From Escherichia coli (GTDB lineage: Bacteria > Pseudomonadota > Gammaproteobacteria > Enterobacterales > Enterobacteriaceae): DNA of 64,000 nucleotides. The stretch is from NCBI RefSeq assembly GCF_003334785.1, contig NZ_QOWV01000001.1. One strand, written 5' to 3'. Positions within the stretch are counted from its first letter, which is position 1. The number at the start of each line of letters is the position of its first letter. Below are positions 674 to 782 of this stretch, piece after piece. The notes beneath the pieces were generated by a model. The model had not been told where the DNA came from. It was given only the letters and a program-made list of their open reading frames with translations, and did no database searches. The position numbers and the translations under genes are program-made.

Positions 674-782
674 GTTATATGCCTTTATTGTCACAGATTT
701 TATTTTCTGTTGGGCCATTGCATTGCCACTGATTTTCCAACATATAAAAAGACAAGCCCGAACAGTCGTCCGGGCTTTTTTT
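674..782 (+). ncRNA. micC: MicC small regulatory RNA (Hfq-dependent, represses ompC)
   Basis: Sequence GTTATATGCCTTTATTGTCACAG... matches my recollection of the MicC 5' seed region; ends in GC-rich hairpin GCCCGAACAGTCGTCCGGGC followed by a T9 run (755-784); lies in the ompN-ydbK intergenic region as in E. coli. Confidence 0.8.

Follow-up and report, generated by a model that had tools for sequence, protein, structure and literature searches.

The closest described counterpart of the locus studied here is MicC of E. coli K-12 (Chen, Zhang, Blyn & Storz 2004). Where PMC5745476 and PMC1489923 quote that work, they credit it with a length of 109 nt for the RNA, and PMC5745476 describes a discrete 109-nt transcript that pairs with the 5' UTR of ompC and thereby represses OmpC. 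The small RNAs acting on OmpC and OmpF require Hfq (PMC7177473), and MicC was found to lower OmpC in the ExPEC strain UTI89 (bioRxiv 10.64898/2026.07.27.741068). In Salmonella, MicC causes RNase E-dependent decay of ompD mRNA, for which a seed of 12 nt is the minimum (PMC4911921). Expression has been followed with a micC-lacZ fusion, which is induced by beta-lactams, rises ~3- to 4-fold upon sigmaE depletion and ~11-fold in an hns mutant, goes up slightly in an ompR mutant and is insensitive to MarA, RamA and Cpx (PMC5745476). The effect of sigmaE was judged to be indirect, because the intergenic region is devoid of a sigmaE core motif (PMC5745476).

The window analysed here, a stretch of 64,000 nt of E. 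coli DNA, was scanned in its entirety against Rfam at gathering thresholds, which gave three matches in all. One of them is MicC (RF00121) at 671–791 on the + strand, with a score of 125 bits (E = 2.3e-19) against a gathering score of 90; the match spans model positions 1–123 of 123, i.e. the full length of the covariance model. The first-pass annotation had called a MicC sRNA on the + strand at 674–782 and had proposed this covariance model as a check. The call is borne out by the scan and also by comparison with E. coli K-12 MG1655 (NC_000913.3), to which 440–830 is 100% identical (391/391 columns). The RefSeq ncRNA feature micC (b4427, 'small regulatory RNA MicC'; K-12 coordinates 1437121–1437231) maps to 674–784 and is 111 nt long, the difference from the 109-nt form (674–782) being two more T's of a 9-T run; a reading made from the sequence only had thus placed a known sRNA to the nucleotide. 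The 20-nt 5' end of MicC occurs a single time in the window, even when 3 mismatches are tolerated (chance expectation 0.01), and 5412 of 5426 complete E. coli genomes contain the 3' 46 nt (736–781). We regard it as almost certain that 674–782 (+) is micC, that it encodes a trans-acting, Hfq-dependent sRNA of ~109 nt and that this RNA acts by the mechanism proposed below. Since the sequence matches exactly a gene that was characterised in 2004, two decades ago, the finding itself is an ordinary one. MicC is part of the K-12 reference annotation and has a curated Rfam family, and the value of the locus here is mainly that of a positive control.

That the window might be MG1655 itself was considered and rejected, since the identity to that genome is 99.87–99.97% and ydbA/bigA is intact. 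The latter gene (28945 to ~34700) is uninterrupted, the insertions of IS2D and IS30C known from K-12 being absent, and its internal repeats show a 294-bp length difference relative to K-12. Several wild isolates, for example IAL7250, match 20 kb at 100%. A plasmid-borne micC was likewise rejected: the five places labelled 'plasmid' and the seven PLSDB records (H40–H46) that came up are chromosome-sized or are non-mobilizable chromosomal fragments. These PLSDB records measure 4.7–4.9 Mb, or 119–386 kb in the case of the non-mobilizable ones, and appear to be mislabelled chromosomal sequence; the chromosomal neighbours uspF, nifJ and ttcA were confirmed in H45, the one record inspected. The remaining two Rfam matches above the gathering score are RydC (RF00505; 52143–52206, − strand, 92.5 bits) and 'sok' (RF01794; 52766–52917, − strand, 109.7 bits). 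When the K-12 annotation is mapped onto the window (offset −2853), sokB falls at ~52819–52875 on the + strand and hokB and mokB on the − strand; the Rfam 'sok' match is on the hokB/mokB strand and therefore opposite to the RefSeq sokB feature.

The first 16 nt of MicC (674–689, + strand) form a perfect Watson–Crick complement of positions −30 to −15 of the ompC mRNA, a site that lies just 5' of the ompC Shine–Dalgarno sequence GAGGG, which starts at −13. For MicC nt 1–30, the best predicted duplex with ompC has an energy of −26.5 kcal/mol and engages nt 1–21, with an internal loop of 11 nt; an energy this low was not attained by any of 2000 shuffled seeds. The MicC 5' seed recognised in the first-pass annotation is upheld by this result, as is the pairing with the ompC leader that had been suggested as a way of checking it. 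A 108-nt duplex predicted for whole-length MicC against 150 nt of ompC was discarded as meaningless, because a whole-length prediction of this kind ignores intramolecular structure, and the seed-only duplex took its place. The ompC leader used for pairing was the K-12 sequence and not that of the window's own strain; it is nevertheless a safe target for this strain, since 5359 of 5426 complete E. coli genomes carry a 120-nt segment of the leader with an identity of 99% or more.

A collection of species-representative genomes was scanned with the pattern GTTANATGCCTTTATTNTCA (18 specified bases), and this yielded 45 loci. Eleven of them were set aside as chance matches: they come from unrelated phyla, have neither a terminator nor synteny, and ~9 such matches would be expected by our own arithmetic. 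The other 34 loci belong to the Enterobacteriaceae (Escherichia, Salmonella, Citrobacter, Klebsiella, Pseudocitrobacter, Superficieibacter, a Raoultella-labelled MAG and one further MAG) and were aligned with the window to give a set of 35 sequences. The same three-part architecture is seen across the 34 species, namely an invariant 5' seed, a variable middle hairpin and a near-invariant terminator. The first 20 nt are invariant in 35/35 aligned sequences, even at the two positions that the search pattern did not specify; the invariance is largely by construction, since the other 18 positions were demanded by that pattern. The seed is intact as well in two independent retrievals, one from E. 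coli SC418 (L002, reached via the ydbK flank) and one from Salmonella enterica (L051, found by low-stringency blastn); the weak megablast match in SC418 is due to divergence of the middle region. The middle third of MicC varies freely in the alignment, with indels of 1, 2 and 4 nt. Because these are not multiples of 3, coding constraint is excluded.

The middle hairpin (708–742, + strand; stem 708–714 with 736–742, loop variable) was delineated from the Rfam consensus structure and from covariation. When the Rfam middle helix was laid on the unfitted MAFFT alignment of the 35 sequences and pairs were counted directly, 82% of the cells were paired and both-side (compensatory) changes were present at 5 of the 7 pairs. 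The covariation score was matched by none of 500 shuffles, and slid controls were 30–51% paired. The terminator helix, 99% paired across the alignment, is nearly invariant and therefore uninformative for covariation. RNAalifold applied to the raw MAFFT alignment returned the terminator only and did not recover the middle helix. The minimum free energy fold of the single sequence is not unusually stable (z = −1.75); it pairs nt 2–8 with nt 68–74 in a long-range helix that sequesters the seed. This seed-masking helix of the K-12 fold was rejected as a feature of the family, its central pair being broken in 27 of the 34 sequences. With the seed kept free, a U-rich stretch, UUUUAUUUU (698–706, + strand), is left as a single-stranded linker. 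U-rich stretches of this kind have a role in Hfq binding among Hfq-dependent sRNAs, and by analogy the linker is a candidate internal Hfq contact; the hallmarks of an Hfq-dependent sRNA present in MicC are this internal stretch and the 9-T run (776–784) after the last hairpin.

A Rho-independent terminator occupies 754–784 on the + strand (stem-loop 754–777, T-run 776–784), as judged from folding and from the 35-sequence alignment, and provides the 3' poly-U of MicC. Its stem is invariant or nearly so in the 35 sequences, though the search did not demand it. In the window, this stem is made of 7 bp, an A761·C770 mismatch and 2 bp (−12.4 kcal/mol); with T instead of C770, as in most other species, the stem is perfect over 10 bp (−16.9 kcal/mol). 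The intrinsic terminator of the first-pass annotation, described there as strong, is confirmed by the hairpin and the 9-T run, and in this allele its stem carries the A·C mismatch. A consensus terminator scanner did not flag the + strand hairpin at 754–777, because the mismatch splits the stem, and the hairpin was confirmed by folding instead. The same hairpin was flagged on the − strand, where it is the sole terminator-like site that the scanner reported in 400–900. In that orientation, it reads as a perfect 10-bp hairpin with a G·U wobble followed by a short U-tract, GUCUUUUU, and is located 36 bp past the stop codon of ydbK; from its sequence, the MicC hairpin may also terminate ydbK transcripts. 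The weakening brought about by C770 is restricted to one strand, since the same base forms a G·U pair on the ydbK strand. In the alignment of 35 sequences, C770 is confined to two, the window and one species representative. Among complete E. coli genomes, 3709 of 5426 (68%) are identical to the window over 736–781, which makes the A·C allele the E. coli majority form. This majority status, along with the asymmetric effect of the mismatch on the two strands, can be considered mildly new.

The short interval that separates the MicC T-run from the stop codon of ydbK contains, at 791–805, a perfect inverted repeat, GGATAAnnnTTATCC, whose 7-bp stem gives a second hairpin in the 3' region of ydbK when folded. 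In E. coli SC418, an IS200/IS605 element with a frameshifted tnpA is located directly after the micC T-run (L002, 3296–3990). A Citrobacter MAG (L034) has the same IS end, GTGCACAGAAAACCCCC, just 3' of the micC terminator, again with micC intact. The idea that micC is disrupted in the ompN–nifJ gap of SC418 by an IS200/IS605 transposase pseudogene was rejected, as micC is intact there and the IS comes after the T-run. Judging from these insertions, the site just 3' of the micC terminator looks like a recurrent IS200/IS605 target, and the recurrence of insertions directly after the T-run is mildly new.

Alignment of the 100 nt upstream of micC from 21 enterobacterial loci shows the pattern expected of a sigma70 promoter starting at G674, with hexamers assigned as follows. 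The putative −35 element is TATACT at 639–644 (+ strand; TATACA in most species) and the putative −10 element, conserved across genera, is TATTCT at 662–667 (+ strand; −12 to −7), ending 7 nt before G674. The two hexamers are separated by a 17-bp spacer of variable sequence and keep a fixed spacing from G674, an invariant base directly preceded by a conserved discriminator. A consensus promoter scanner did not flag the micC promoter, because the −35 element fits the consensus at only 3 of 6 positions in this strain. Further upstream, an A/T-rich block, ATACAAAATAAAAATTATAC, is conserved at 624–643 (+ strand; −50 to −31), its 3' end overlapping the −35 element and its ATTATAC portion being invariant in the 21-locus alignment. 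This block is also found in Salmonella enterica, where ompN is missing, and it may function as an UP element or be bound by a regulator. Such deep conservation of the −50 to −31 block, persisting where ompN is lost, is mildly new. Over 574–645 as a whole, conservation among six genera extends to the short blocks TAATTC, GAAAT, GATAAT, GTGAATG and ATACAAAATAAAAATTATAC. Neither the promoter scanner nor the 21-locus alignment pointed to a regulator site in 574–645; the only sigma70-like site on the ompN strand is a −10 element, TATCAT, at 592–587, which overlaps the GATAAT block.

The first-pass annotation had placed micC between a divergent ompN and ydbK, and overlay of the K-12 annotation confirms this arrangement. 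The 5' part of ompN, which encodes the quiescent porin N, lies at 1–446 on the − strand (ATG at 446) and runs off the left end of the window, its identity being given by the K-12 annotation, by tblastn with OmpN and by the sequence. The gene for pyruvate:flavodoxin oxidoreductase, ydbK (nifJ/pfo), lies at 813–4337 on the − strand and is convergent with micC. The gap between ompN and micC is 227 bp, and 30 bp separate nt 109 of MicC (782) from the ydbK stop codon; PMC1489923 gives both of these distances and credits them to Chen et al. 2004. Of the 30 enterobacterial loci in which the upstream sequence is long enough, 28 have an OmpN-like porin gene ~222–229 bp upstream of micC and divergent from it. 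Convergent ydbK/nifJ is found in 33/33 enterobacterial loci that reach past the micC terminator (L034, in which the sequence ends ~137 nt after the terminator, is not among the 33).

It had also been proposed that ompN and micC constitute a compact regulatory module. In support of this, lacZ fusions to micC and ompN are co-induced by beta-lactams, sigmaE depletion and H-NS loss (PMC5745476), and this published co-induction, taken with the 28/30 synteny, supports a shared ompN–micC control region analogous to that of ompC and micF. However, Salmonella arizonae (L026), diarizonae (L044) and enterica (L051) have the order uspF–micC–nifJ, without ompN. These loci keep the micC −35 and −10 elements and recognisable TAATTC, GAAAT, GATAAT and (G/C)GAATG blocks. 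In the other genera, the blocks in question sit in the ompN–micC intergenic region. The proposal is only partly supported, and the linkage is not obligatory, since micC, its promoter and the blocks occur in three Salmonella lineages without ompN. The same retention suggests that the conserved upstream blocks are of no less use to micC than to ompN. There is no indication of an action of MicC on ompN.

The most likely mode of action is Hfq-assisted antisense repression of ompC translation, which can be outlined as follows. MicC would be transcribed from its own sigma70-type promoter (−35 at 639–644, −10 at 662–667), starting at G674, and transcription would stop at the intrinsic terminator (stem 754–777, T-run 776–784). 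The correctly spaced hexamers and the terminator lend indirect support to the transcript of ~109 nt from G674 that the literature describes. The single-stranded 5' nt 1–16, in a pairing that could be extended to ~nt 21, would then bind ompC mRNA at −30 to −15, directly upstream of the Shine–Dalgarno sequence. Hfq would hold the 3' U-tail and the internal U-rich stretch, the duplex would block 30S binding and OmpC synthesis would fall as a result. As to the exact step that is blocked, we infer that a duplex ending at −15 acts by 30S exclusion. In Salmonella, the same seed pairs inside the ompD coding sequence and leads to RNase E-dependent decay (PMC4911921).

Could the signal at this locus be nothing more than the intrinsic, possibly bidirectional terminator of ydbK, embedded in A/T-rich intergenic DNA and unconnected with an independent sRNA? 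The − strand hairpin does have the right features for it, being 36 bp downstream of the ydbK stop codon and consisting of a perfect 10-bp stem followed by GUCUUUUU, the sole site reported by the scanner in 400–900. Yet a terminator on its own leaves unexplained an invariant 20-nt 5' end located ~80 nt away and its 16-nt complementarity to ompC, as well as the covarying middle hairpin and the −35 and −10 elements of a + strand start at G674. Moreover, the full-length covariance-model score reaches far beyond the terminator, and it is on the + strand that the hairpin is followed by the 9-T run. That the hairpin may also terminate ydbK fits the MicC reading and does not replace it, and we hold that the terminator without an sRNA is very improbable. 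The idea that the region encodes a small protein instead of a non-coding RNA deserves even less credence and is, in our estimation, practically negligible. An 83-aa open reading frame initiated by TTG is indeed present on the + strand at 651–902 in the mechanical ORF list, but it has no ATG start, crosses the terminator and enters the ydbK coding region in antisense orientation; in addition, the gaps of 1, 2 and 4 nt in the alignment and the concentration of conservation in the first 20 nt and the hairpin are the opposite of what a coding sequence would show.

A different question is whether the RNA, granted that it is MicC, has ompC as its main target. Its important effects could be exerted on motility, chemotaxis or metabolism through targets other than ompC or, in some lineages, through pairing within coding sequences and recruitment of RNase E. 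A UTI89 delta-micC mutant is reported to have stress and colonisation defects that are not fully due to OmpC mis-regulation and to display widespread transcript changes (bioRxiv 10.64898/2026.07.27.741068), Salmonella MicC destroys ompD mRNA via RNase E with a 12-nt seed (PMC4911921), and an invariant seed of 20 nt exceeds the strict need of a single target site. On the other hand, the RNA-seq changes may be indirect, via altered OmpC, and the 16-nt perfect complement to the near-invariant ompC leader is by far the strongest signal in the present data. On balance, we consider it unlikely, though deserving some weight, that ompC is not the main target of MicC. Repression of ompC remains the reading that we prefer.

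Beyond identification of the gene, one may speculate that 754–777 is a bidirectional terminator tuned asymmetrically in E. coli and, separately, that the −50 to −31 block is a regulator site of micC; we regard this combination as doubtful and would give it a low probability. If it were true, the asymmetric terminator could allow MicC read-through antisense to the ydbK 3' end, or overlap of the convergent 3' ends, and either would couple the expression of MicC and ydbK. As for MicC itself, it bears on antibiotic permeability through OmpC levels and induction by beta-lactams, and the 2026 preprint points to its relevance for ExPEC fitness (bioRxiv 10.64898/2026.07.27.741068).

Compared with the described systems, the locus has the same gene and flanks as E. 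coli K-12 micC, with the same neighbours, the same gaps of 227 and 30 bp and the same complementarity to ompC; there is no difference within the gene, whereas the host strain differs from MG1655. Salmonella MicC (Pfeiffer et al. 2009; Bandyra et al. 2012) resembles the window in its first 22 nt, in the terminator stem except for the loop, in the promoter blocks and in the convergent nifJ/ydbK. It differs in the middle third, in a terminator free of the mismatch and in having uspF as neighbour instead of ompN, and it has an additional documented target, ompD, which is bound inside the coding sequence and undergoes RNase E-dependent decay (PMC4911921).

The micF/ompC pair offers a parallel to micC/ompN, in that an sRNA gene divergent from one porin gene specifies an RNA that represses another porin by pairing through its 5' end with the ribosome-binding region (PMC5745476); MicF is also H-NS-sensitive, like micC (PMC5745476). 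However, MicF belongs to another Rfam family and has ompF as its target, where it spans the Shine–Dalgarno sequence as well as the start codon; the duplex formed by MicC goes no further than −15. Regulation differs too, since MicF is activated by OmpR, SoxS and MarA, while OmpR represses micC mildly and neither MarA nor RamA affects it (PMC5745476). RybB, RseX and IpeX share with MicC the ompC mRNA as target and the Hfq-dependent antisense logic (PMC5745476, PMC7177473), but their sequences and loci are unrelated to those of MicC. RybB, in particular, is directly sigmaE-dependent, in contrast to micC, which rises upon sigmaE depletion and is separated from ompN by a region without a sigmaE core promoter (PMC5745476).
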